In this document: one piece after another, positions 1 to 34,518 of the stretch
Layout of the letters: each line of letters opens with the position of its first letter
How positions within the stretch are numbered: the stretch's first letter is position 1
Source of the DNA: a virus
Lineage: Duplodnaviria > Heunggongvirae > Uroviricota > Caudoviricetes
Virus record (IMG/VR): IMGVR_UViG_3300029653_000081
Location: 1 to 34,518 of that record
Length of the DNA: 34,518 nucleotides
Direction: 5' to 3' (one strand)
Program-made: the position numbers and the translations under genes
Notes under the pieces: model-generated
Seen by the model: the letters and a program-made list of their open reading frames with translations, nothing else
The model's database searches: none
Told to the model about the DNA's origin: nothing

Positions 1-126
1 CGGCATAACCTGAATCTGAGGCAGCACCTGGCACGGCTGGGACGGAAGTCGCTGTCGTTCTCAAAATCGGTGGAGCAGCATGACAAAGTCATCGGGCATT
101 ATCTGAACATAAAACACTATCAATAA
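1..126 (+). CDS. insB: IS1 transposase InsB, C-terminal 41 codons (5' part outside window)
   Basis: Translation [41 protein letters not shown] with TAA at 124-126. Confidence 0.8.
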
Positions 127-141
127 GTTGGAGTCATTACC
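1..141 (+). mobile_element. IS1 insertion sequence, terminal portion (continues beyond the window start)
   Basis: Positions 121-141 (caataagttggagtcattacc) are the reverse complement of the IS1 terminal inverted repeat GGTAATGACTCCAACTTATTG; frame-1 translation of 1-126 is an InsB C-terminus ending ...[12 protein letters not shown]. Recognised from memory of IS1. Confidence 0.8.
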
Positions 142-3968: not shown

Positions 3969-4194
3969 TAGATTGCTCTAATCTGGAGTCACCTGGCGTT
4001 TTCAGTATGGATTTTCTTTGGCGCGGTCTGGCCATTAGGGATCATGTTTGCTGCAACATTTCTTCTGATGTGGATATTCACCCTTCCCGGTGATTTCTAT
4101 AGAAAAAAAGCCAGACATTGATACAATCATTGCGGGTGCTTGAGGCTATCTGCTTCAGGCATTACCCGAAAAGCAGATAGAAGAAAGCCCCAGA

Positions 4195-9939: not shown

Positions 9940-10070
9940 GAAGAGATTTTATTGAAAGTCACTTGTTGACTTTCTCGCTAAAAGTAATTTTTTAAATTTT
10001 TTGTGCGGGGGAGGGGGGCAAGTAAAACAGGCGTGAAATCGTGGGAATTTCAGTCTGAAATTTTCCATGA
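9940..10070. promoter_or_regulatory. parS: parS-like partition site downstream of parB
   Basis: Heptamers related to ParB box A (gtgaaat 10033-10039, atttcag 10047-10053, ctgaaat 10055-10061) next to an AT-rich tract (10070-10100) that could be an IHF site. Confidence 0.5.
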
Positions 10071-10160
10071 ATATCTATATATATCATATATTTATACATG
10101 AAATAGGCGCGGGACATTTTAGACAGGGGAGGGGGCTAAAGCCGCCTCCCACCAGCGGGA

Positions 10161-11126
10161 TTATTCCCCAGCAGACATTTTCCCAATGATTTTTTTTATT
10201 GCTTCGTCAATTTCAGTTTGCACTTCAGACGGGAGTCTGGAGAACTCGTAGGCGACAACCCGTTTTTTCGGATCGGACTTCTTTCGGGCATATTGGCGAC
10301 GGTCAGAGAAGTCTCGCAGCTTCTCAACCACCACAGATTTAACCGGCGCGGGCTTCAGGCTTTTGCTTTCCGCTTTGAAGATAGCCAGTATCTTCGCTTT
10401 ATCCTCTTTCGCGCCCTCAGTCTCTGCAATTCGTTCGCGCACCGTATCAACCAGCTCTTCAATCGGCACGCTTTTAGCGTTAGCATCCTCGGCGATCTGG
10501 AGCAGTAACTGGTAATCTGGAAGGGCGAGATCGCTGGCTACGGGGAAGACAGCAATCATCTCATCCGGCACCGCGGCAGCCTGGAAAGCTCGCGTCACTT
10601 TTGCCTTTGAGATGTTCTCAGCTCGGGCGATCTCTTCTTTGGTCATATTCTTACCGTACATAACCTCGAAGCGTTTACCCAGCTCGCGCAGAGTGTGTTC
10701 GCGGGCTGTCTGGATATCAATGGCCAGCTGGCGGGCATCCGCCAGGCTGATCTCATCTTTCGTCACCAGAATCTCAAATTTCGTTTCATTGAAGATACAC
10801 GCAGCGCGGCGACGCGATCCGTCCAATACCTCAATGCGCTCCCCAACCATACGACCGATAGCCGGGAAGAACTGTTGCAATTTAATGGTGCGGGAAATAT
10901 CGCTTACCGACTCAGGGGTGAGCAGAGACTGATCGCGGCCGTTAACTGCCGGGTCAACGAACGTGCGCGACTCAATCTCACCACTCAGCACGACGGTAAG
11001 CAAGAATTTAGCCTGGCGGCCAGATTTTAGGGTAAAGGTTTTGGTGCCTTCACTGCCTTCAAGCATGCGAGCAAACTCGGAGCTATTCTTGCCCAGCACT
11101 CGTCCACGGGAAACTATTTTTTTCAT
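10161..11126 (-). CDS. parB: Partition protein ParB
   Basis: 321 aa with ParB-like segments (GRDQSLLTPESV, LDGSRRRAA, SKAKVTRAFQAAA); overlaps the parA stop. Confidence 0.9.
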   Translation of the reverse strand: MKKIVSRGRVLGKNSSEFARMLEGSEGTKTFTLKSGRQAKFLLTVVLSGEIESRTFVDPAVNGRDQSLLTPESVSDISRTIKLQQFFPAIGRMVGERIEVLDGSRRRAACIFNETKFEILVTKDEISLADARQLAIDIQTAREHTLRELGKRFEVMYGKNMTKEEIARAENISKAKVTRAFQAAAVPDEMIAVFPVASDLALPDYQLLLQIAEDANAKSVPIEELVDTVRERIAETEGAKEDKAKILAIFKAESKSLKPAPVKSVVVEKLRDFSDRRQYARKKSDPKKRVVAYEFSRLPSEVQTEIDEAIKKIIGKMSAGE

Positions 11127-12334
11127 GCCGCCTCACCCCTAACAAACTCAATTCGATCAAACACAGCCTTAGTGAAACGCTCGGCCTCGGTTCGTGCCTT
11201 CTTCAGCGCCTCTGCACTGCCTGGATACGATTGCGGGTTGGCACTGATTACGGTGTCGAAAGACTCGCCGCATCGCTCAAAGCCATCCAGACGAGGCAGA
11301 GAAGAGTCCAGAATGTTGCTGGCGTAAACCTCACGCGCAAGGCTGTGTGATGTCTCGTGATCGCGCTTGCCGGTCATCTTCGACATAAAACCAATGCTGG
11401 CGCTCAAACGCGGTTCTACGCCTTCCTCCTCCAGTTGCTCCAGCATTTCTGGCAGACGGGTGAGATATTTCAGTGTTGAGTGGAAGTCAACCTGGGCTGG
11501 TGGGGTAGGGGTAAGCAGCAAATCGCTGGCCGCCAGACCGTTGAGCAGGAACGGATCCAGGTGTGGACCGGTATCAATAAAGATAAAGTCATAATCATCC
11601 GCAACACGATCAATGATATTGCGTCGAAGGATTTCGTACTGATTTTGTCCGGGAAGATGCTCTTCAACCAGCTCTTTCCATTGGCTGGCAACAAAGCCAT
11701 CGTCGATAGAGGCTGGAATCACGTCTACGCCAGGAACGATGGTCGGACGAATCACCTCTTTGCGTAGCGTCTCCGCGTCCAGGTCGTTCAGCATCGCCTG
11801 CGCGGCGGTTTCCAGGATGGAACCAATACTGTGAGTATGGTCGAGGAACATTGTGCTGGATGCCTGAGGGTCAAGGTCAATTACCAGAATGCGCAGATCG
11901 TGACGCAGTAAATCCTGATGCACACGCAGAGCGTGCGCCAACGTGACTGTGGAAACCGTTTTGGATACGCCACCCTTCAGGTTTACGACAAAAATAACGT
12001 AAGGCGATTTGTGAATGTCGCGATATTTGGGGATCTTACGGTGGGCATAGATATCAATGACGTTCTGGATGGTCAGCGCGTACTGTTCAACGTTACCGAC
12101 CTGTTTCTTGTTGAACTGGTACCCATCATCTTCCATCTCTTTGATGGCCTGCTCCACAATACGGCGGCTCAGCTTCGGCAACTTTGCCACAGCGTTACGA
12201 GTGAACGTCTGATAATACTCGGTCTGATTGAACTCTTTGCGCTGATCTTCAATATCCTGACTCATGGCCTTAAGTAATGCGCTTGCACGAAGAGCTATGG
12301 TGCCGACACCGCCGTAATCGCGTTTCATCATCAT
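11123..12334 (-). CDS. parA: Partition ATPase ParA (type Ia)
   Basis: 403 aa; deviant Walker A NLKGGVSKTVST, plus VIDLDPQ and FIDTGPHLD motifs; long N-terminal extension typical of P1-type ParA. Confidence 0.9.
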   Translation of the reverse strand: MMMKRDYGGVGTIALRASALLKAMSQDIEDQRKEFNQTEYYQTFTRNAVAKLPKLSRRIVEQAIKEMEDDGYQFNKKQVGNVEQYALTIQNVIDIYAHRKIPKYRDIHKSPYVIFVVNLKGGVSKTVSTVTLAHALRVHQDLLRHDLRILVIDLDPQASSTMFLDHTHSIGSILETAAQAMLNDLDAETLRKEVIRPTIVPGVDVIPASIDDGFVASQWKELVEEHLPGQNQYEILRRNIIDRVADDYDFIFIDTGPHLDPFLLNGLAASDLLLTPTPPAQVDFHSTLKYLTRLPEMLEQLEEEGVEPRLSASIGFMSKMTGKRDHETSHSLAREVYASNILDSSLPRLDGFERCGESFDTVISANPQSYPGSAEALKKARTEAERFTKAVFDRIEFVRGEAA

Positions 12335-12430
12335 CTCCTTATCATTTCGTATGAGTGAATTGTACGTTTGATTCTGCTACGTGCAACTTTTTTTGATTCG
12401 TGCGTCAATTATTGCACGTAAAGAAATGGC

Positions 12431-12730
12431 GATGTGGCTATTAGATGTGTGCTGGAGGGATGATGCAGGACCAGAATGTGCGATAGAGGGAAGTCGCATT
12501 AAATTATGTGCTGTGGAGGGATCGCTGGTATCAAATATGTGTGCTGGAGGGAAAGGCAGAGAATTACATGTGCACTGGAGGGAAAAACGGATGGACAGAT
12601 GTGTGCTGGAGGGAAAGTCTGGGCAAACTGCGGGGCGTCCCCCTCCAGCGCACATCAAAAACAGGAAATTAGACAAGCCTTCCCGGCAGCACACATATTT
12701 TTAATGCAGCTTCCCTCCAGCACACACTTA
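12431..12730. repeat. incA: incA iteron array (about nine 19-bp RepA-binding repeats, both orientations)
   Basis: Direct copies of (G)ATGTGTGCTGGAGGGAAA-like repeats near 12444, 12474, 12504, 12536, 12567, 12598 and inverted copies near 12639, 12678, 12710. Confidence 0.85.
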
Positions 12731-13588
12731 TTCTGGGAGTTTCAGCTTTGGATTGCGAGAATGGACGATTACAAAACTTTCCCGGCCTTTCTTCTCAATT
12801 GAACAGTCGAGATAGCCGATTGTTTTAAGCTGTTCTATCGCTTTCTTAATGATACGGTTTTGCTCGCCAACAGCTGACTGCAAAGCCAGGCGCTCACGGA
12901 TTCGGGCGAAAGATAGCGGCAACGGATTCTGCGGAAGGCTTTCGATGAAAGTGTAAATGGCTTGTGCAGCTTCTTTCTTCGGAAGGGCACGCAAGGCGTG
13001 GTGTTGCAACAGAACGCGATAATCAAGCTGGAACAGCTCCCACAGCTTCGAATCAGCCTCCAGCTCTATCAGATCAAGGTCAGCATCAAAACGACCGACC
13101 TTTAGCAGACCAGTCTGATAGCCGCCTTTAGCATCTTTTCCGCGCTTAAAAGCGATACCCTTGTTACGTAAGCGTCCAAGTGATTCATGAATGGTTAAAC
13201 GCAGTTTCGCATCCAGACGTTTTGAGGGGAAACCACAGGCTTTAGCGAATTCCTGAAACGATAACTGGATGGTGTTTGAGGACAAGCCGTATTTGCTGAA
13301 CGCGTAGATGACACCGATCCACGTTTTGAAATCAGTATCCATATCGAGTCGAGGACCGGTGATTTTAATATCATCGTAACCCTCGGCTTTAGCTATCTCC
13401 AGCTGGGAAAACGCTTTGGTGGCATCAATCTCTTTACTTTCTCCTTTGCTCTTTGATGGCTTCGGAACGAATACCCCCAAGCGCATCAATGCTACAGGCT
13501 GGACAGTGTTGTTTGAATTAACTGTTAGTTCTTTTGCCTTACTTTCAATGTCTGCGTAAAGAATATCGGAGATAAATGATTGATTCAT
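12728..13588 (-). CDS. repA: Plasmid replication initiator RepA (286 aa)
   Basis: Flanked by iteron arrays on both sides and followed by parA-parB, the P1 plasmid replicon arrangement. Confidence 0.9.
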   Translation of the reverse strand: MNQSFISDILYADIESKAKELTVNSNNTVQPVALMRLGVFVPKPSKSKGESKEIDATKAFSQLEIAKAEGYDDIKITGPRLDMDTDFKTWIGVIYAFSKYGLSSNTIQLSFQEFAKACGFPSKRLDAKLRLTIHESLGRLRNKGIAFKRGKDAKGGYQTGLLKVGRFDADLDLIELEADSKLWELFQLDYRVLLQHHALRALPKKEAAQAIYTFIESLPQNPLPLSFARIRERLALQSAVGEQNRIIKKAIEQLKTIGYLDCSIEKKGRESFVIVHSRNPKLKLPE

Positions 13589-13599
13589 ATTACTTTTTC

Positions 13600-13870
13600 C
13601 GAATTGTGTGGATAGTTTTTATAAGTGGTGATAACTACCCAGGCTTTCCCGTCAGCACACATCCTATATCCCGCCAGCACACATTAGCAACCCGTCAGCA
13701 CACATTTTTATCCCTCCAGCACACATCGTTTTCCCTCCAGCACACATCGCGATACACTTCTAAGCCAGACGTGGCGCGGCCTGCAACGATCAGGGATCTA
13801 TATGGATCTAATTGGGATCTGTATGGACCTAATTATTGGATCTACCCAGTGGATAATGTGGATAAGTGAA
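13600..13870. other. oriR: Plasmid origin (oriR-like) including incC iterons
   Basis: Five inverted iterons (13645-13748, ...cagcacacat...); five heptamer repeats (G/T)GGATCT at 13793-13843, four with GATC; DnaA-box-like sequences tgtggatag (13607-13615) and agtggataa/tgtggataa (13848-13866). Confidence 0.85.
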
Positions 13871-16473: not shown

Positions 16474-17371
16474 GCACTGGAAAAATATTACTATTTATAA
16501 ACTTTCTCGTGAGGCGGATCTGACCGACTTAGAAGATAAAAAGAAAATGATCCTTTTCACGCCATGCGGTAGTCAGGATATGGCCAAGTTCGGTTTTGTA
16601 TCGCCATTTGGTGATAATTCCGAAGTTATCGCTATGCATGGAAATGGTTTTATCCTTGTTGAAGCAAAGCGCGAAACAAAAATTCTTCCCCCGCCGGTTA
16701 TCCAGCGAGCTATTCAAGAAAAAATTGAAAAACTTGAGCAAGAACAAGCGCGTAAACTGAAGAAAACAGAGAAGGACTCCCTGAAAGACGAAGTTCTGCA
16801 TTCTCTTCTGCCACGGGCTTTTTCAAAGTTTTCTGTTATCCAGGCGATCTACGACGGTTCAACTAAACGTATCTATATCAATGCCAGCGCGCGGCAGGCA
16901 GAGGATATGCTCGCGCTTATGCGTAAGTCTCTGGGTTCTCTTCCTGTTGTGCCACTAAGTGTTGAAAATCCCATTGAGTTAACGCTGACCGACTGGGTAC
17001 GTGATGCTAGTGCTCCACAGGGATTTCAAATGGGGGATGCGGCAGAACTTAAGGCAGTGCTTGAGGATGGCGGTATCGCCCGAGTGAAAAAGCAGGATTT
17101 GGGAAGCGATGAAATTTCCACACACCTGGAAGCTGGCAAGCTCGTCACTAAGTTGGCACTCGACTGGCAGAACCGCATTAAATTTACACTGGACCATAAC
17201 TTCAGCATTACCAGCGTCAATTTTGCGGATGAATTGCTTGAGCAGAACTCTGATATTGATAGTGAAGATGTTGCGCAGCGACTGGACGCAGATTTCTTCC
17301 TATTGACCAGTGAAATTTCGTGCCTGGTTGATGCTCTGGTAAATGCCCTTGGTGGAGAGGCTAAGCAGTGA
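16466..17371 (+). CDS. rdgC: RdgC-family recombination-associated protein (P1 hrdC-like)
   Basis: 301 aa from [15 protein letters not shown]; [38 protein letters not shown] and GSLPVVPLS closely resemble E. coli RdgC as recalled. Confidence 0.8.
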
Positions 17372-20250
17372 AAGAGCTGTGCTATGGATCTGTTTGCAGT
17401 GGAATTGAAGCCGCGAGTATTGCCTGGGAACCGTTGGGTATGCGTCCGGTTTGGTTTGCTGAAATCGAGCCTTTTCCATCGGCCGTTCTTGCGCTCCGCT
17501 GGCCCCATGTCGCCAACCTTGGCGACATGACAAAACTTGCCAAAAAAGTCTTGGCTGGGGAAATCGAATCCCCTGACGTGCTCGTCGGGGGAACACCATG
17601 TTTTACCGCGGGGCATATGGTTCTTTGTAAAAATGGTTATAAACCAATAGAAGATGTTTGCCCTGGCGATTACGTAGTCAGTCATCTCGGGCGGTTACAA
17701 CAAGTAAAAAGAGTTGGTTCAAAAATAGCTAATACGGGGTTACTTAATGCCGTTGGGCAGCCTTTAGGTATAAGAACAACCAATGACCATCCCTTCCTGG
17801 CTGTTCGGTGGAAAGCCCAAAACACCCGGAAAAATGGCACATATTTTAAGAGAGAGTTGTTGTCTGAACCGGAATGGCGAGCAGCATGTGATATGCCGGG
17901 ATATCAATGGTGCGCTCTAACTAATTTCAATATTGCATCTCCAGATATTTGTTCTCGGTTCTTGTCTGAAGAACAGGCTATGTATCTTGCGGGCGCTTAT
18001 GTTGGCGATGGATATATTAGGAGATGGAGAGGTAAATCTAAGAAGGCGGTTGTTTTTGGCATAAATTGCCAGAAATTGAGAAAGTTTCATTGCCGCATAC
18101 CAGAAAACATATTTTCCGTGGCAAGCGAAATCCGAGGGAGCATCAAAGTAACCTTGAATGATACGTGTTATGCCAATTGGCTTAATGAACATTTTGGCGA
18201 GTTAAGCCATGCTAAGCGTATCCCTGCATGGGTGATGTCGCATCCATTGCGTCATGTGTTTTTACAAGGCTATCTTGATACTGATGGGACACCAAGTGGT
18301 AAAGCGGGATTTAGAATTAATAGTGTTAGTCCTGCGCTTGCTTGGGGCGTTGCGGGGTTGTCACAGACTTGTGGTTATGTTTCTTCGGTCAGCTTTATTG
18401 AAGTTGAGCCCAAAAAAGTGATCGAGGATCGCGTGGTAAATCAACGGAATTATTATCAGGTAACAATCTGCCCGCAGAAATTGTCACGTAAATCAAGATT
18501 GGCTCATGGAATGCTTTTACGAACAGTCAAAGAGTTTAAATCGGTAGGCCTAGATACTGTATACAACATAGAAGTCGAAGGTGATCATTCCTATATCCTC
18601 AATGGTGCGGTGGTCCATAACTGTCAGGCATTCAGTATCGCGGGATTACGTGGTGGGCTTGATGATGAGCGTGGCGCGCTAACTTTAAAGTATGTGGAGC
18701 TTGCAAATGCAATTGACGACAAACGGGCTGAGTCATTTCTCAAACCAGCCGTTATTGTCTGGGAAAATGTCCCAGGAGTCTTGTCATCGGCAGATAACGC
18801 CTTCGGATGTTTCCTTGCCGGATTGGCTGGAGAAGATGCGCCATTTGAACCAGGTGATCGACCTGAATCAGGAAAAAGTAACGCGTTCTGGCGGTGGGAT
18901 GGCAAAACCGGTTGCCATGCTCCAAAGTGGCCGCAGTGTGGTTGTATTTATGGGCCGCAGCGAAAGGTGGCCTGGAGAATCCTTGATGCCCAATACTTCG
19001 GAGTGGCACAACGACGCCGACGCGTGTTTGTTGTCGCAAGTGCTCGAACAGACCTCGATCCCGCAACGGTACTTTTTGAGTTCGAAGGCGTGCGCCGGGA
19101 TATTGCGCCGAGCAGAGGCGAGGGGAAGGAAACTACCAGATATACTTCAAACATCGCTATCAGATCTTGCGATGATACAAACATAGTTGCCATGGCACAT
19201 GGGCAAGGAGGGGCTGAGATAAAAACCGATAATTCGGCACCAACTTTAACATGTAACCATGAAGCACCAATTGTATTGCTCGGCGACGGTAGAATACGCC
19301 GTCTTACCCCTGTCGAATGTGAAAGGCTGCAAGGTTTTCCTGATGGGCATACGTTGATCCCTACGGAAAAGCGTAAAAAAGTTTCTTCAGATGAACTGGC
19401 ATACCTTCGCAATAACTATCCTGATTTAAGCGAAGAAGAGGCCGCGATGCTTGCAGCTGACGGACCGCGTTACAAAGCGATCGGCAATAGTATGGCAATA
19501 CCAGTAATGCGCTGGATTGGCGATCGGATTACTAAGGCCGTATGTCGGCAGAAAGAAGGAAGTGAAACAAAAGAGCGAAAAGTTAAACCAGCGGCAGAAT
19601 TCGAACGGTCCATATTCAAATGGGCTGGTGGAAAATTTGGTGTTCTGGAACAAATCTTTCGCTATTTGCCAGAAGGGAAGCGCCTGATTGAACCTTTCGT
19701 TGGTGGCGGAGCTGTCTTCATGAATGCCGGATACCAGGAAAATCTGCTAAATGATGTGAATGCTGACCTGATTAACTTTTACAAGACTCTGCAACGCGAG
19801 GCGCATTCACTTATCACTCTGGCACATCGTTTCTTCCAGGACTACAACACACAGGAAGGATACCTGGCAGTACGGAATGCGTTTAACAAACAAGTCTATG
19901 ATGATTTACATCGCGCAGCGGCGTTTTTGTTCCTGAACCGACATTGTTTTAACGGATTGACGCGTTACAACCAGGCCGGTGAGTTCAATGTCGGTTATCC
20001 GGACATGAGTCTCGATAAAGCATGCGGTATTTATCACGGCATGCGAATTGAGCTTAAAGAACCAAATGGTAAAGCCCCGACGAAAGAGCAGATCGCCTGG
20101 ATGCGCAGGCTTAGAGAGGAAGGTTACTACGTCGTTCTTGCGTATGGTGCAGAACAAGCGATAACCGCCATCCTGGAATACATAAGCCTTAAAAAGGGTG
20201 AGGCTATTGAGCATGTATTGAACGGCGACAAGTGGTTGTATGCCACTTAA
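17368..20250 (+). CDS. dmt: Dmt-like multidomain DNA methyltransferase: C5-cytosine MTase interrupted by an intein, then a Dam-like domain and a nuclease-like tail
   Basis: GTG start coupled to the rdgC stop. C5-MTase motifs: [13 protein letters not shown] (split), [33 protein letters not shown]. Dam-like segment FKWAGGK...[10 protein letters not shown]...[23 protein letters not shown]. No DPPY-type motif anywhere in the protein. Confidence 0.85.
17599..18621 (+). other. Intein (341 aa) with LAGLIDADG homing-endonuclease motifs inside dmt
   Basis: Begins Cys (CFTAGHMVL), ends VVHN, followed by Cys+1; contains [11 protein letters not shown] and [10 protein letters not shown]. Excision would join GGTP to CQAFSIAG, restoring motif IV. 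Confidence 0.8.
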
Positions 20251-25378: not shown

Positions 25379-28300
25379 CTATATTTTTCCGCCTACGCCT
25401 TTAAACTTCTCAATAAACGAGACGATTTTCTGGAAAACTGCCTGTTTTTTCGTTTTATATTGCGGATTCAACGGACTAAGTTTTGGTAATGTTTCGTTTA
25501 ATTCTGTGCCATTTTCGGTGGCGTATTCGCGTTTTAAAGACGTGCGAATATAGCGTTTTGCTGCATCTTCATTGAGATTTTCTTCTTTTATCAATGCTTC
25601 TGCTTCACGTTGCTGTTCGCGTTGAGCAAACGTAAAGAATGCCTCAATGATACTGGCTTTGTCTGGTAAATCATCCAGGTTCGTTTGCTGAATAAAATCG
25701 ACCACCAGGCCCTCTTTCGCCCGGTTCCCCAGGCTTGAACGAATTAAGCGTTTGACCTCTTCGATCATTTCGCCCTTGCCTTTATTTTGTCTGTTGTGTT
25801 CGAAAATCAGTCCAAGGATATAATCCAGGTTTATTTCCTGAGACTTCAGCAAATCGACCTCAAAAACCACGTCATCCCAGTCAGTGGTTGATTTCTCTTT
25901 TTTCTCAGCTTCTTTCTCACGGCGCTGCCAGTCGCGAATATCGTTATAGGCAGAACGATAATCCTGAATCTTGCGATCAGCAGGGAGACGAATTGTTTGC
26001 AATTCAGCGAACTTTTCATCATCCACATAATGTTCTGCTTTGAATTTTTCTACCGCAACAGGATCGCTAAGATCGATTTGTTGCAGGGCTTTTAGCGTGG
26101 CAAATTCATCATAGTTTTGCAGGATGTTCTCGGCACGCAGGTATTCGCCAAACAGTTTAACGAAGTCTTTCTTCTCTTTTTCACTTTCAATACTGGCAGG
26201 GTCAGGGAACCGTTGTTCCAGTTCTGAAACTACTGCCATAAAGCCGCGTTTGGCTTCACCGGTGGCAGCATCAGTAAAACCTTCCATATACTCTGCATAA
26301 CTCTTTTCTAACACCACATTTTTGGTATTTTTATCACCAAACAGCGTTATGGCATCAATGGTTGAGCGTTCCAGATCCCGAAAAGTGACAATGTTACCGA
26401 AGGTTTTAGTGGCGTTATAAATGCGGTTGGTGCGGGAAAATGCCTGCATCAGGCCGTGAAAACGCAAGTTTTTATCGACGAATAGCGTGTTCAATGTTGG
26501 AGCGTCGAAGCCGGTTAAAAACATCCCAACGACAATTAACAGATCGATATCCTGATTTTTAACCCGTTGGGCTAAATCGCGATAGTAGTTCTGAAAACCG
26601 TTACCGTCGGTGCTGAAGTTAGTTTTAAAATAGCTGTTATACTCACGAATTGCAGCGTCAAGAAACTCTTTAGCACTGCTGTCCATTGCGCTGGTATCAA
26701 AAGTTTCATCGGAAATTTCACCAATGGCATTTTGTTCTTCATTAGCGGCAAAGGAGAAGATTGTCGCAACACGCAGCGGTTTATAAGTTGCAGATTTATT
26801 AGCGGCTTCCTCTTGTAACCGTTTAAACGCCGCGTAATAGGCTTTTGCAGCATCCACGCTGCTCACTGCCAACATAGCATTAAAACCTTTTGCGCCAGGG
26901 AAAGTACGGTGCGTCTTCTGGCGGAAGTTATTCAGAATATATTGCGTAATTTCCTGTATACGCATGGGATGAAGAAACGCCTGCTGATTTTCAGCCGCAC
27001 TTAGTTTTTTCTCGTCAGTTTCTGTCTCTAAAGACTTAAACTGTGGCCGCACATCGTTGTAGTCCACCTTGAATTTGAGCACTTTTTCATCACGAATCGC
27101 ATCGGTAATTACATACGAATGCAATTCACGACCAAATACGCTGGCGGTCGTTTCTGAGCCTAAGGCGTTTTCCGGGAAAATAGGTGTGCCGGTAAAACCA
27201 AACTGATAATAGCGTTTGAATTTCTTCTTCAGGTTTTTCTGCGCTTCTCCAAACTGGCTGCGGTGGCATTCATCAAATATAAACACCACTTGCTGATTAT
27301 ATACAGGCAGGTCGCTTTCTGCTTTCATCAGGTTATTGAGTTTCTGAATAGTAGTGACGATAATTTTGTTATCGTCCTTATCCAGATTTCGTTTAAGGCC
27401 TGCGGTATTTTCCGAGCCGTTGACGCTGTCTGGCGAAAAACGCTGATATTCCTTCATGGTCTGGTAATCGAGGTCTTTCCTGTCGACCACAAAGAAGACT
27501 TTATCAATAAAGTCCAGCTCTGTTGCCAGACGCGCGGCTTTAAAGCTGGTGAGGGTTTTACCAGAACCGGTAGTGTGCCAGATATACCCACCGCTTTCCG
27601 GTTTTGACCAGTTCTTCGCTGTAAAGGAACTCTTAATTTTCCACAGAATGCGCTCGGTGGCGGCAATCTGGTACGGTCGCATCACCAGTAGCGTCTGACT
27701 ACTGTCAAAAACGCTGTAGTTCACCAGAACATTCAGCAGAGTATGTTTCTGGAAAAAGGTAGCGGTAAAGTCTTTGAGGTCTTTAATCAGCGTGTTGTCT
27801 GATTTCGCCCAATTCATGGTGAAGTCAAAACTGTTTTTATCGCGCTTTGTCGTGTTGGCAAAATAACGGGTATCGGTGCCGTTAGAAATGACAAACAGTT
27901 GCAGATACTTAAACAGGGAATTTTCGCTGTTAAAACTCTCTTTACTGTAACGATGTATCTGGTTGAAAGCCTCACGAATCGCCACCCCGCGTTTTTTTAG
28001 TTCGATTTGCACCAGCGGTAAACCATTAACCAGGATCGTGACGTCATAACGGTTAGCATGAGAACCCGTCTGTTCAAACTGCTGGATAATCTGCACCTTA
28101 TTGCGCATGAGATTCTTTTTATCTATCAAATAGATGTTCTCAAGTCGCCCGTCATCAAAAATAAAGTCGCAGATATAGTCGATATGGATTTTACGGGTTT
28201 TATCCAGAATACCATCGCTGGGGTTGTCCAGATACTGCTCCGTGAAGCGCCGCCACTCGCTGTCATTAAACATCACACCATTGAGGCTCTGAAGCTGTTC

Positions 28301-28495
28301 CCGAACATTGGACAGCATTGCCGACTGTGATTTTACGGAAATAAATTCATAACCCTGATTTTGCAGGTCCTGAATCAGTTCACGTTCCAGGTCCGATTCG
28401 CTCTGGTAGCTGTCGCCTGTTGGCTCAGCTTTGATGTACTTATCAAGAACGATAAAGTTATTGGATTCAGCAATGGTGTGTGTCTGATGAGTCAT
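25379..28495 (-). CDS. hsdR: Type I restriction enzyme R subunit HsdR (1038 aa)
   Basis: Helicase motifs TTGSGKT and [10 protein letters not shown]; size and position after hsdM-hsdS. Confidence 0.9.
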
Positions 28496-28616
28496 AGCGC
28501 ATCCTTTGTGCCGTCTGGCAAGGGCCGGAAGGGGGGTAATGGTGACTTCCGGCGCGTAAAAAATAGTCTATATACTGACCGGGTGTTAAGGTGGTCCGAT
28601 CGGTAGCAATGATCAA

Positions 28617-29822
28617 TTAATTACTGGCAGTTTCAGGTTTCGGGAAACTGAACAGTAAATCACGGTAGTATTCGTATTGTTTCTGGCGCAACTCGATTTC
28701 ACGCGGAAGACCTTCGGTGATGGAAGCTGCGATTGCATCAAACTTATCCAGAATATCCACAATACGCCCCTGTTCGTCTAAAGATTTTTGAGGGTGAGAT
28801 GGGTATGGAATAGGTACTCTGACTTGTTTCAGTGCATTAGCATTAAACTGTGGTTGCCCACCACCAGATACTAATTTATTAGCCTGTTCCCAAAAAAAAT
28901 CACTTTGTGCAAAGTGCCAGTAATATTTGGCATTAATAATCGTTTTATTTAGGTTCAACTTTATTAAAAAACCAGCGTATACTGCTGGATAATCTTCTTC
29001 AAAAATCATTGTTTTACCAAAGGTTGCCCCAGTTCTTGCCATGAGTAAATCATTTTTGTCTAAGGTATATTTCTCATTTTCCTCATTTAATTCAACGTAC
29101 ATTGGGTTTTCTTTCGATAGCTTCCCGTCTTTATTTATGTCAGTAATTCTCACGAAACGGGCATCTCCTGAATCCATGGCTTTGGCTGCATATCCATATG
29201 TAAAATCTCCAATTTCCCCCAAAGTCTTCCACTCAACCTCACCATCTTTAAAACTCAACAACTGGTCGCGATAGTAGTTGTACTGTTTTTTACGCATGTT
29301 AAGCTCAGCGGTAAGCTCAGCGGTAAGTGCAGTAAATTTATCCAGAATCCGAACGATTTCAGACTGGATGGCAAGGGATTTTTCCGGATTATCCGGGCAG
29401 GGGATGGGGATAGGGAAATTCTCTAAGGTTGATAGCACGATATATGTCATTGCCGCGCTATTTGTTCTTTCCTCGAGATATTTCTTCAGGCTATGGCTAA
29501 GCACAAAATACAAAAATCTAACACTTACATTTTCGTCGAAATTTGTCAGAACATAGGTGCGCTGATAAGCCTCAAACTTGCCGATGTAATGCTTCACCTC
29601 ACCAACATTCGCATTGCCTGCAATCAGCAATGCCTCTGTATCCCAGCGGAATTTATCAATTTTGCTTGTCTCTTTGGCTGTCGTGAAGAACATATACTCT
29701 CCATCATCAACAGCCGCATTCGCATTAAGCTTTCCTGTTTCAATTTTGCAAGTTTGCCCAAGTGTCTTCCACTCAACCTCAACCCCATCCAGCAATTTTT
29801 CCAGATAACTCATCTCGCTCAT
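28617..29822 (-). CDS. hsdS: Type I specificity subunit HsdS (401 aa)
   Basis: Two target-recognition halves each ending in a conserved repeat ([19 protein letters not shown] and [19 protein letters not shown]); 4-nt overlap with hsdM. Confidence 0.85.
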
Positions 29823-31381
29823 TTCTGCACCTCGCAGCCTTCAATTTCAGCCACAATTGCATCAATATCTTTACGCAACTGGTCGATTTTGCTGACCGTG
29901 GTTTTCAGCTCTGCATTCAGCTCACCGATATCGATAATTTCGCGGTTATCTTTCGCTTCCACATAGCTGCTCACCGACAGGTTATAGTCATTCGCGACAA
30001 CAGTCTCAAACGCAACAGATTTCGCCAGATGAGCAACATCTTCCTTGCTGGCAAATACCTGCATAATCTGTTCGATATGGGCATCGGTCAGGATATTGTT
30101 GTTGGTTTCTTTTTTGAACAGTTCGCTGGCATCAATAAACTGAACTTTGGTATCCGTTTTATGTTTAGACAGCACCAGAATGTTTACAGCAATAGTGGTG
30201 CCAAAGAACAGGTTCGGTGCCAGTGAAATCACGGTTTCGACATAGTTATTATCGACCAGATACTGACGGATTTTCTGCTCCGCGCCGCCACGGTAAAAAA
30301 TACCCGGGAAGCAGACAATCGCAGCACGACCTTTGGCCGAAAGATAGTTCAGCGCATGTAGTACAAACGCAAAGTCAGCTTTGGATTTGGGGGCCAGGAC
30401 GCCAGCCGGGGCAAAACGTTCATCGTTAATCAGCGTCGGGTCATCGCTGCCAATCCATTTCACCGAATACGGCGGGTTAGAAACGATGGCATCAAACGGT
30501 TTTTCATCTCTGAAGTGTGGCTCAGTCAGTGTATTACCCAGCTTGATATCAAACTTGTCGTAGTTGATGTTGTGCAAAAACATGTTCATACGTGCCAGGT
30601 TATAGGTTGTATGGTTGATTTCCTGACCAAAAAAGCCTTCTTCGATGATATGGTTATCAAACTGCTTTTTAGCCTGCAACAACAGTGAGCCGGAACCCGC
30701 TGCCGGGTCGTAGATTTTGTTAACGTTGGTCTGCCCGTGCATAGCCAGTTGTGCAATCAGCTTGGAGACGTGCTGCGGTGTAAAGAACTCACCGCCTGAC
30801 TTACCGGCATTTGCCGCATAGTTAGAAATCAGGAACTCATAGGCATCACCGAACAGGTCAATCTGATGTTCGTTGAAGTCACCAAGTTTTAACCCTTCAA
30901 CCCCTTTCAGAACCGCAGCCAGGCGGGCATTTTTATCTTTAACGGTGTTACCCAGGCGGTTACTGGTGGTATCGAAATCAGCAAACAAACCTTTGATGTC
31001 TGCTTCTGAAGGGTAGCCGTAAGCAGAACTTTCGATAGCAACGAAGATGCTGTTTAAATCTGCGTTCAGTCTGTCATTGGTATTTGCTTTCGCAGCTACG
31101 TTGCAGAAAAGCTGACTGGGGTAGATGAAGTAGCCTTTAGTTTTGATGGCATCGTCTTTAATGTCATCAGTAATTACGCTGTCATCCAGTTTCGCATAAC
31201 AGATACTGTCATCACCGGCTTCAATATAACTGGAAAAATTTTCGCTGATAAAACGGTAGAAAAGTGCGCCCAGAACGTATTGCTTAAAATCCCATCCATC
31301 GACCGAACCCCTGACATCGTTAGCAATTTGCCAGATTTGACGATGAAGCTCTGCACGTTGTTGAATACTTGTCATTTTCAT
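29819..31381 (-). CDS. hsdM: Type I N6-adenine methyltransferase HsdM (520 aa)
   Basis: NPPY motif ([10 protein letters not shown]) and AdoMet-binding [11 protein letters not shown]. Confidence 0.9.
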
Positions 31382-33432: not shown

Positions 33433-33502
33433 CTATTTCTTTAATCGAGGGTATTATATTCGACGTTGATTAGTTGACATGGGCTAATCAGTAGGTGACA
33501 GG

Positions 33503-33955
33503 ATGTTACTTAACTGGCAGGGACGCCACTTCATGGAAATAAATCACTCACGAATAACATCGTACGAGATTGCGGATTACATGATCCGCACTAAATCTCT
33601 TCTATCAGCGAAAGAACTCGCAGCAATTCTTGAAAAGGAATACCCGCATCTGGATGTCGATAAGCGCGATGTTTATCTGCGCTTAAAGGCTATCGCTGTG
33701 TCTAAGTATTCGTCTGTTTTGATTGATGACAGTACACGCCCACGTAGATTTCAGATCCACTCTCTGAATCCTGAATTCTTTCGCCGCAGTCGCGCTCCGC
33801 GCCGGTTTGATGAAAAACTCCAGAACGAACTCTATATGACGCAGGACGAAAAGGAACGCCGGGAGCACCAGCCTTGGGTAATGGCGCGTCAATTTTTCAA
33901 TAAGGTGGTCCGTCAGCACCGTCATTACGGTAATGCCACATCCGCACGTATCTGA
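33503..33955 (+). CDS. lpa: Late promoter activator Lpa-like protein (150 aa)
   Basis: ATG at 33503 with AGGTGA SD; sits between a C1 operator and pacA as in P1. Confidence 0.6.
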   Translation: MLLNWQGRHFMEINHSRITSYEIADYMIRTKSLLSAKELAAILEKEYPHLDVDKRDVYLRLKAIAVSKYSSVLIDDSTRPRRFQIHSLNPEFFRRSRAPRRFDEKLQNELYMTQDEKERREHQPWVMARQFFNKVVRQHRHYGNATSARI

Positions 33956-34041
33956 TTGATTGCTTGCCCGTTCCGGGCCTTTTGACATGTGACTTTCGTT
34001 ACCCTCGCGTCAAAAAGAGTTTTATACGAAAGGAAGCATAA

Positions 34042-34455
34042 GTGACCTGGGACGATCACAAGAAGAATTTTGCTCGCCTGGCGCGAGATGGTGGTTACAC
34101 CATCGCACAATATGCCGCCGAGTTTAATCTCAACCCAAACACCGCACGTCGTTATCTCCGTGCATTCAAAGAAGACACCGGAACAGCGGACAGCCGTAAG
34201 CCAAATAAGCCTGTCAGGAAACCACTAAAAAGCATGATCATTGATCACGCTAATGATCAACGTGCAGGTGATCACGTTGTGGCTGAAATGGATGAAAAAC
34301 AAAGAGTTAATGCCGTTGTCAGTGCCGCAGTCGATAATGCGAAGCGCCAAAATAAGCGCATAAATGATCGTTCAGATGATCATGACGTGATCACCCGCGC
34401 CCACCGGACCTTACGTGATCGCCTGGAACGCGACACCCTGGATGGGCTTTGTTGA
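34042..34455 (+). CDS. pacA: PacA terminase subunit, N-terminal part; reading frame ends after 137 codons
   Basis: GTG start with AGGAAG SD; the pac site lies within it; TGA at 34453-34455 and all three frames close within about 40 nt. Confidence 0.6.
34235..34393 (+). other. pac: pac packaging site with seven TGATC(A/G) hexamers
   Basis: Four hexamers at 34235-34274 and three at 34365-34393 flank an about 90-bp spacer, the 4+3 arrangement of the P1 pac site; each carries a Dam GATC. Confidence 0.85.
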
Positions 34456-34518
34456 ATAAATCGAACTTTTGCTGAGTTGAAGGATCAGATCACGCATCTT
34501 CCCGACAACGCAGACCGT

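Follow-up and report, generated by a model that had tools for sequence, protein, structure and literature searches.

A truncated pacA gene joined to IS903B beyond an intact pac site in a defective P1/P7-type phage-plasmid

In this study, the pacA gene at the end of a stretch of viral DNA of 34,518 nt (IMG/VR record IMGVR_UViG_3300029653_000081, positions 1 to 34,518, the whole of which is called the window here) was investigated. We observed that the gene departs from its P1-type relatives after nucleotide 403 and runs directly into the end of an IS903B element, of which the window holds the first 74 nt. The short pacA is very likely the result of a simple insertion of one IS903B element (1057 bp) at this point, with the end of the contig being a repeat break inside the element. 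The pac site upstream of the junction is intact in its sequence, and the gene that carries it is disrupted.

The pacA fragment and the insertion sequence at its end

The pacA portion of the window comprises the features below.

33987..34005, + strand: late promoter LPpac (-22 element, -10 TACCCT), same as in P1, with the P1 annotation transferred by alignment
34042..34444, + strand: pacA 5' fragment of a P1/P7-type phage-plasmid (nt 1-403, codons 1-134 plus 1 nt), from alignment to P1 and pMCR_SCKP-LL83
34042..34455, + strand: junction ORF of 137 codons, with PacA residues 1-134 followed by IS-encoded G-L-C and a stop, from translation
34453..34455, + strand: TGA ending the pacA frame, which is IS nt 9-11 and lies within the terminal repeat

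The order pdcB-lpa-LPpac-pacA is the same as in P1 and in the P7-type plasmid pMCR_SCKP-LL83. The lpa gene (33503-33955; Pfam BPP1_LPA, E = 1e-56) stands directly upstream of LPpac and pacA, the ORF starts directly downstream of lpa with GTG at 34042, and the leader 3' of LPpac differs from that of P1 in the alignment only by a 1-nt insertion at about 34024. Over the region 33500-34444 the identity reaches 97.2% with P1, 98.7% with phage SJ46 and 100% with P7/P1-type phage-plasmids such as pMCR_SCKP-LL83; for pacA nt 1-403 it is 97.2% at the nucleotide level with P1 and again 100% with pMCR_SCKP-LL83. In every search the P1-type match breaks off at 34444, which is pacA nt 403 of 1194, and in a three-way alignment the window agrees with P1 and pMCR up to ...GACACCCTGGATG and is unrelated to them beyond that point.

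The first-pass annotation of this DNA had noticed a frame of 137 codons closing at 34455, some 60 nt after the pac site, and had put P1 PacA at about 45 kDa. Both the ORF (34042..34455, with its GTG start) and the distance, counted from the last canonical pac hexamer, were recovered here, and this size agrees with the intact gene, which has 1194 nt and encodes 397 aa in P1 (NC_005856) and pMCR (MF510496.1), where it overlaps the start of pacB. Unlike these two, pacA in the window is interrupted after nt 403, and the one piece present encodes 134 of the 397 native residues, with 263 missing, so that the proposal of a truncated terminase small subunit was correct. The fragment matches the PHROG 1711 'terminase' profile (E = 5e-61), only at profile positions 1-131 of 417, and gives weak, sub-threshold helix-turn-helix matches at aa 7-48; no solved structure was found for any PacA relative. 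An alignment in which P1 pacA also ended here had been named in advance as the result that would overturn the idea of truncation, and P1 pacA runs on to its 1194 nt; the same alignment to P1 and pMCR rules out a natural short PacA isoform. The gene has the position of a P1-type pacA, 3' of lpa and LPpac, and homology to P1 PacA. In place of an unbroken, full-length ORF (about 397 codons) that runs into the start of pacB, it has a frame that closes at codon 137 inside the IS, and for this reason pacA here is a disrupted gene (pseudogene) and no functional member of the family.

The earlier statement that no frame stays open to the end of the window did not stand, as the pacA frame itself reopens after the lone TGA and is open over 34456-34518, reading LKDQITHLPDNADR from a TTG at 34477. 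pacA and the IS903B transposase share this frame by coincidence, separated by the single TGA (34453) and seven sense codons, and a one-codon change within window positions 34042-34518 would give a PacA(1-134)-transposase fusion. A read-through fusion of this kind was considered and ruled out, given the TGA at 34453 and the transposase's own TTG start.

The sequence that follows pacA contributes four further features.

34436..34444: target-site duplication, left copy, 9 bp, CCCTGGATG; the same 9 bp follow the IS right end on the sister contigs L027 and L028
34445..34518, + strand: IS903B (IS5 family), first 74 nt, cut by the window end, with 100% identity to annotated copies
34445..34462, + strand: IS903B left terminal inverted repeat, GGCTTTGTTGAATAAATC, whose reverse complement is the right end of a reference copy (L003) and of the IS on L027 and L028
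34477..34518, + strand: start of the IS903B transposase gene (TTG, then KDQITHLPDNADR), on the same strand and in the same frame as pacA

The last 79 nt of the window matched IS903B in thousands of records with 100% identity (E = 2e-33), this query including 5 bases that precede the IS, and the 74 nt at 34445-34518 are identical to copies annotated 'IS5-like element IS903B family transposase'. The hits that also cover the 5 preceding bases (H26-H32) were set aside as unrelated IS903B copies with a chance flank match, for example L003, which lies beside a RepB gene. L003 is 1057 bp long with the same 18-bp terminal inverted repeats, and its transposase CDS (RefSeq) begins at IS nt 33 with the same N-terminus. 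All the IS bases that can be seen, 74 nt in the window and 126 and 127 nt on sister contigs, equal this copy, including the first 14 transposase codons. The element shares with annotated IS903B copies the 18-bp repeat, the transposase N-terminus, 100% of the visible bases and the 9-bp duplication, the right copy of which comes from sister contigs. Target duplications of IS903 are 9 bp long. The element is oriented as pacA and its insertion point lies 51 nt past the last canonical pac hexamer. IS903 has been described as a signature resident element of phage P7 (PMC6906374).

The far side of the insertion in sister assemblies

In the proposed mechanism, IS903B would have transposed into pacA after nt 403, in the orientation of the gene, within a target region whose uninterrupted form is GACACCCTGGATGATGATGG, and would have duplicated the 9-bp CCCTGGATG. 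The pacA frame would then enter the left terminal repeat for 9 nt, gain Gly-Leu-Cys and stop at the TGA, giving a stub of 137 residues in which only the putative helix-turn-helix region at the N-terminus and the pac-encoding stretch remain, and the other 791 nt of pacA would lie beyond the IS together with pacB, c1 and cre. Since IS903 duplicates 9 bp, the far side is expected to show the IS right end, then CCCTGGATG, then pacA from nt 404 onward, with GATTTATTCAACAAAGCC followed by CCCTGGATGATGATGG as the predicted k-mer across the right junction. The right terminal repeat also carries an in-frame TGA, 19 nt before the IS right end, which rules out a fusion of the IS into 3' pacA and implies that a gene caller should start the C-terminal fragment at Met161 and predict a protein of 237 aa.

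With reference to an exact-protein index, the 137-aa junction protein was found on at least 10 public contigs from several runs. Its sources include the ENA assembly ERZ918259 (run ERR912081, human gut metagenome; a 34,620-bp MEGAHIT contig), the Logan assembly of the same ERR912081, the Logan assemblies of SRR34061433 and ERR10113986, and six similar places. These left-junction contigs match the window without a single mismatch for as much as 10.4 kb upstream, and all of them break inside the IS, either 126 nt (k = 127) or 27 nt in. The window itself stops 74 nt into the element because short-read assemblers fail to cross the multicopy IS903B. Mis-joins do occur at contig ends in repeats, so that a chimera of pacA reads and IS reads might be suspected, as the first-pass annotation did in naming an assembly artefact; nevertheless, two assemblers (MEGAHIT at ENA, and Logan) built the identical junction from at least three different runs, and the reciprocal junction described below bears the 9-bp duplication typical of IS903, which a chimera would not make. 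We consider that there is hardly any chance of such a mis-join.

The predicted far-side protein (PacA Met161 to the end, 237 aa) was present as an exact copy in the collection, encoded on L027 (6,635 bp, same ENA assembly) and on L028 (same run SRR34061433). These two contigs open with the final 127 and 28 nt of IS903B, continue with CCCTGGATG and pacA nt 404-1194 with 0 of 791 mismatches to pMCR, and then pass into pacB (494 aa), c1, coi, cra and cre. The same 9 bp therefore stand on both sides of the IS in two contig pairs, L006/L027 and L007/L028, each from one sample; four further similar places were noted for the right junction. An IS right end followed by the duplicated 9 bp and a perfect remainder of pacA denotes a clean transposition with target duplication. 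The right junction is known from two sister samples whose left contigs are identical to the window, which itself carries the left copy only; through this identity the reciprocal junction, the duplication and the downstream genes would probably belong to the window's source as well. The frameshift-corrected continuation that had been raised earlier was not found, as pacA resumes only beyond about 1.06 kb of IS.

These pairs also bear on the reading in which IS903B is the end point of a deletion or rearrangement in the window's genome, with the 3' part of pacA and pacB lost or placed elsewhere. The far side lies outside the window, IS elements often cause adjacent deletions, and this element has another large deletion and an IS1 boundary. 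Nevertheless, both samples that could be checked pair a left contig identical to the window with a perfect right-junction contig, and the similar places (six left, four right) indicate more such pairs, which makes a deletion end point very improbable. The rearrangement junction proposed earlier is excluded at least for the two samples in which both sides are visible, with the reciprocal junction, its duplication, the rest of pacA and pacB all in place.

Another arrangement, a larger segment such as a composite transposon or cargo lying between two direct IS903B copies at the same site and with the same 9-bp duplication, is unlikely, though slightly less so. Each assembly breaks 27-127 nt from the IS ends and the interior is unobserved, and IS903B is highly multicopy on enterobacterial plasmids; on the other hand, a single IS covers everything with fewer assumptions, and the left junction is a transposase start and the right junction a transposase end, as for one element. 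Since the two outer ends are different IS ends, inverted copies in the manner of Tn903 are excluded. The simple insertion of one IS903B remains the preferred explanation, and the population may be mixed and carry an intact pacA allele as well.

We also looked for the allele in other collections. Among the records searched (PLSDB with its 573 pacA-bearing plasmids, complete E. coli genomes, phages), none crosses 34444/34445 and none has IS903B inside pacA, and the exact strings of both junctions were absent from viral_contigs, genome_contigs and metagenome_contigs. At least 80% of pacA lies in one place in 564 of these 573 plasmids, the rows sampled being single full-length pieces, and in a published survey pacA is one of 21 genes present at full length in 77 of 77 P1-like phage-plasmids (PMC9603915). 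Disruption of pacA is uncommon in these elements, and the pacA::IS903B allele appears to be unreported.

A PacA fragment of 199 aa (P0017), which like the junction protein came solely from Logan and ENA sources, was considered as a possible instance of the same allele and rejected, its contigs being frameshift-like pacA splits without an IS, some with homopolymer errors. As a separate observation, many public contigs (L010-L026 and L029; for example, L019 nt 1-30 and L020 9526-10714) carry pacA as two ORFs without any IS, the C-terminal pieces being 237 or 199 aa. Some of these read GACACCTGGATG instead of GACACCCTGGATG, obvious homopolymer errors, and part of the splits is sequencing noise; one sits in the NCBI assembly GCA_028485975.1 and could be a real frameshift.

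The pac site and the capacity for packaging

The elements of the pac site, whose layout has been described (PMC10028697), are located as follows.

34235..34393: pac site, intact, with left hexamers at 34235, 34242, 34254 and 34269 and right hexamers at 34365, 34377 and 34388, at the P1 offsets
34297-34309: IHF site of pac, mapped from the P1 annotation
34317-34326: pac cleavage positions, mapped from the P1 annotation

Four TGATCA hexamers lie at 34235-34274 and three TGATCA/G hexamers at 34365-34393, all seven in the arrangement found in P1, with a further TGATCG at 34416; the IHF site and the cleavage positions align to P1 without gaps. The window therefore contains a P1-type pac of about 161 bp, lying within pacA, in which 4+3 Dam hexamers flank the IHF site and the central cleavage region.

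Self-packaging of the element has very probably been lost, in that it would be unable to cut its own pac or to package itself, as the first-pass annotation had also expected. pac is cleaved only when PacA and PacB are both present (Skorupski 1994, as cited in PMC10028697), and the PacA encoded here is without 263 of its 397 residues; moreover, the right terminal repeat holds an in-frame stop and no good ribosome-binding site precedes the C-terminal piece, which could in principle be translated from Met161. Unlike in P1 and pMCR, an IS of about 1.06 kb stands between pacB and LPpac, and it also parts pacB from its overlap with pacA and from translational coupling to that gene. On the far-side contig the predicted internal promoter PpacB is intact, and PacB might still be made from it. 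Predicted terminators in IS903B, which could exert polarity on pacB, were no more numerous than in shuffled controls. The question of packaging also loses some of its weight, since about 11 kb of tail and baseplate genes are gone from this same element.

An engineered P1 lysogen, pacA*::npt with a mutated pac (PMC10028697), is also altered at the pacA/pac locus and also has lowered packaging of the resident genome. The lesions are opposite, as the engineered P1 keeps PacA and has its pac hexamers destroyed, whereas the allele in the window keeps pac and has PacA destroyed.

The remaining backbone and the decay of the element

The window represents 34.3 kb of a P1/P7-type phage-plasmid with IS fragments at both ends, the other 60 kb or so lying outside it. 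Positions 142-34444 are colinear with pMCR_SCKP-LL83 in reverse orientation at 97.7-100% identity. The replication and partition genes, phd-doc and lytic functions of a P1/P7-type backbone are present; ParA, ParB, Doc and an antirepressor were confirmed by Pfam. The parA, parB and phd-doc genes are intact, as is an ORF of 286 aa in the position of repA, which gave no Pfam match at E <= 1e-5. The set of morphogenesis and packaging genes is incomplete, with pacA disrupted and an 11.1-kb block gone.

Compared with every close complete relative, about 11.1 kb are missing (pMCR 11739-22839), with dmt losing its 3' end, pmgM losing a part, and tciABC, ban/dnaB, dbn, the tail and baseplate genes and pmgL removed. 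The deletion crossed a 6-bp microhomology, GGTTAT, at 19993-19998 and yields an in-frame Dmt'-'PmgM fusion of 960 aa (ORF 17368-20250) in which the D12 adenine-methylase domain is truncated. The same 960-aa protein was found on 11 public contigs from other runs, indicating that the deletion is real and marks a circulating lineage. An intein of 341 aa (17599-18621; Pfam Hint_2 and LAGLIDADG_3) was also noticed; it interrupts the C5-cytosine methylase domain of Dmt immediately ahead of the catalytic Cys in the motif GGTP|CQAFS, begins with Cys and ends with His-Asn, and the stretch is without counterpart in pMCR_SCKP-LL83.

Several other features of the backbone were recorded. Window positions 1-141 are the end of an IS1A-family element abutting P1-type DNA at 142, the junction falling within a hypothetical gene beside the ant/icd region and recurring in two complete records, NZ_CP061756.1 and NZ_CP034659.1; with IS1 at one end and IS903B at the other, both ends of the window are IS repeat breaks. 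The ISApl1-mcr-1 cassette (pMCR 43456-46639) is absent, with no resistance gene at that site in the window, and a further stretch of about 140 bp differs from pMCR_SCKP-LL83 (window sites about 1356-1361 and 4004-4009). The partition and replication region at 10064-13857 has no megablast match to pMCR_SCKP-LL83 and holds parB (10161-11126), parA (11123-12334) and the repA-sized ORF (12728-13588), which points to two otherwise near-identical backbones that differ in their par/rep (incompatibility) module. A complete type I restriction-modification system at 25379-31381 (HsdR 1038 aa, HsdS 401 aa, HsdM about 518 aa) separates pap/pmgS from phd-doc, an arrangement shared with pMCR-type plasmids; P1 lacks the system at this position. 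The closest complete relative, NZ_CP034659.1 (E. coli ATCC 98082, a 454,520-bp record), is 100% identical to window positions 13589-34444 and carries the two segments in opposite orientations; for a 'plasmid' entry of 454 kb, this arrangement suggests a cointegrate, an inversion mediated by IS1 or a fault in the assembly.

Both the inactivation of genes by IS insertion and the decay of P1-like phage-plasmids to plasmids are established (PMC10879196). The defective P1-like plasmids described by Pfeifer and Rocha (2024, PMC10879196) have kept replication, partition and addiction and have lost phage functions via transposable elements and deletions, and the same is seen here. Compared with those plasmids, most of the phage genes in the window remain, the lesions being pacA::IS903B and the 11-kb dmt-pmgM deletion, and no relaxase, oriT or resistance cargo was found within the window. 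The element is a defective prophage persisting as a plasmid, with its replication, partition and addiction genes spared, and it looks like an early stage in the decay from phage-plasmid to plasmid.

The set of three lesions, that is, loss of PacA, retention of pac and loss of tail genes, is carried unchanged by a lineage seen across several independent sequencing runs. This raises the idea, which we regard as a long shot, that a pac-positive, pacA-null and tail-less lineage is a stable, helper-dependent transducible plasmid, or that its stub interferes with P1-like phages. As a satellite, the plasmid would use its intact pac for packaging only with pacase and virions provided by a P1-type phage, whether co-resident or superinfecting; by interference, the PacA(1-134) helix-turn-helix stub, driven by LPpac, would bind pac hexamers and hinder incoming P1-like phages.

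In summary, the gene should be annotated as pacA::IS903B, a disrupted gene, and neither as a novel short terminase nor as a misassembly. This accounts for the puzzling short pacA and for the contig end, and as an ordinary knockout in an already decaying prophage-plasmid it has little import beyond annotation. Since pacA is almost always intact elsewhere, its loss marks a lineage that would no longer be able to spread as a phage, and the element provides an example, dated by its structure, of an early step from phage-plasmid to plain plasmid through IS hits and a microhomology deletion. Such lesions should be taken into account in rating phage-plasmids as vectors that transduce resistance genes.
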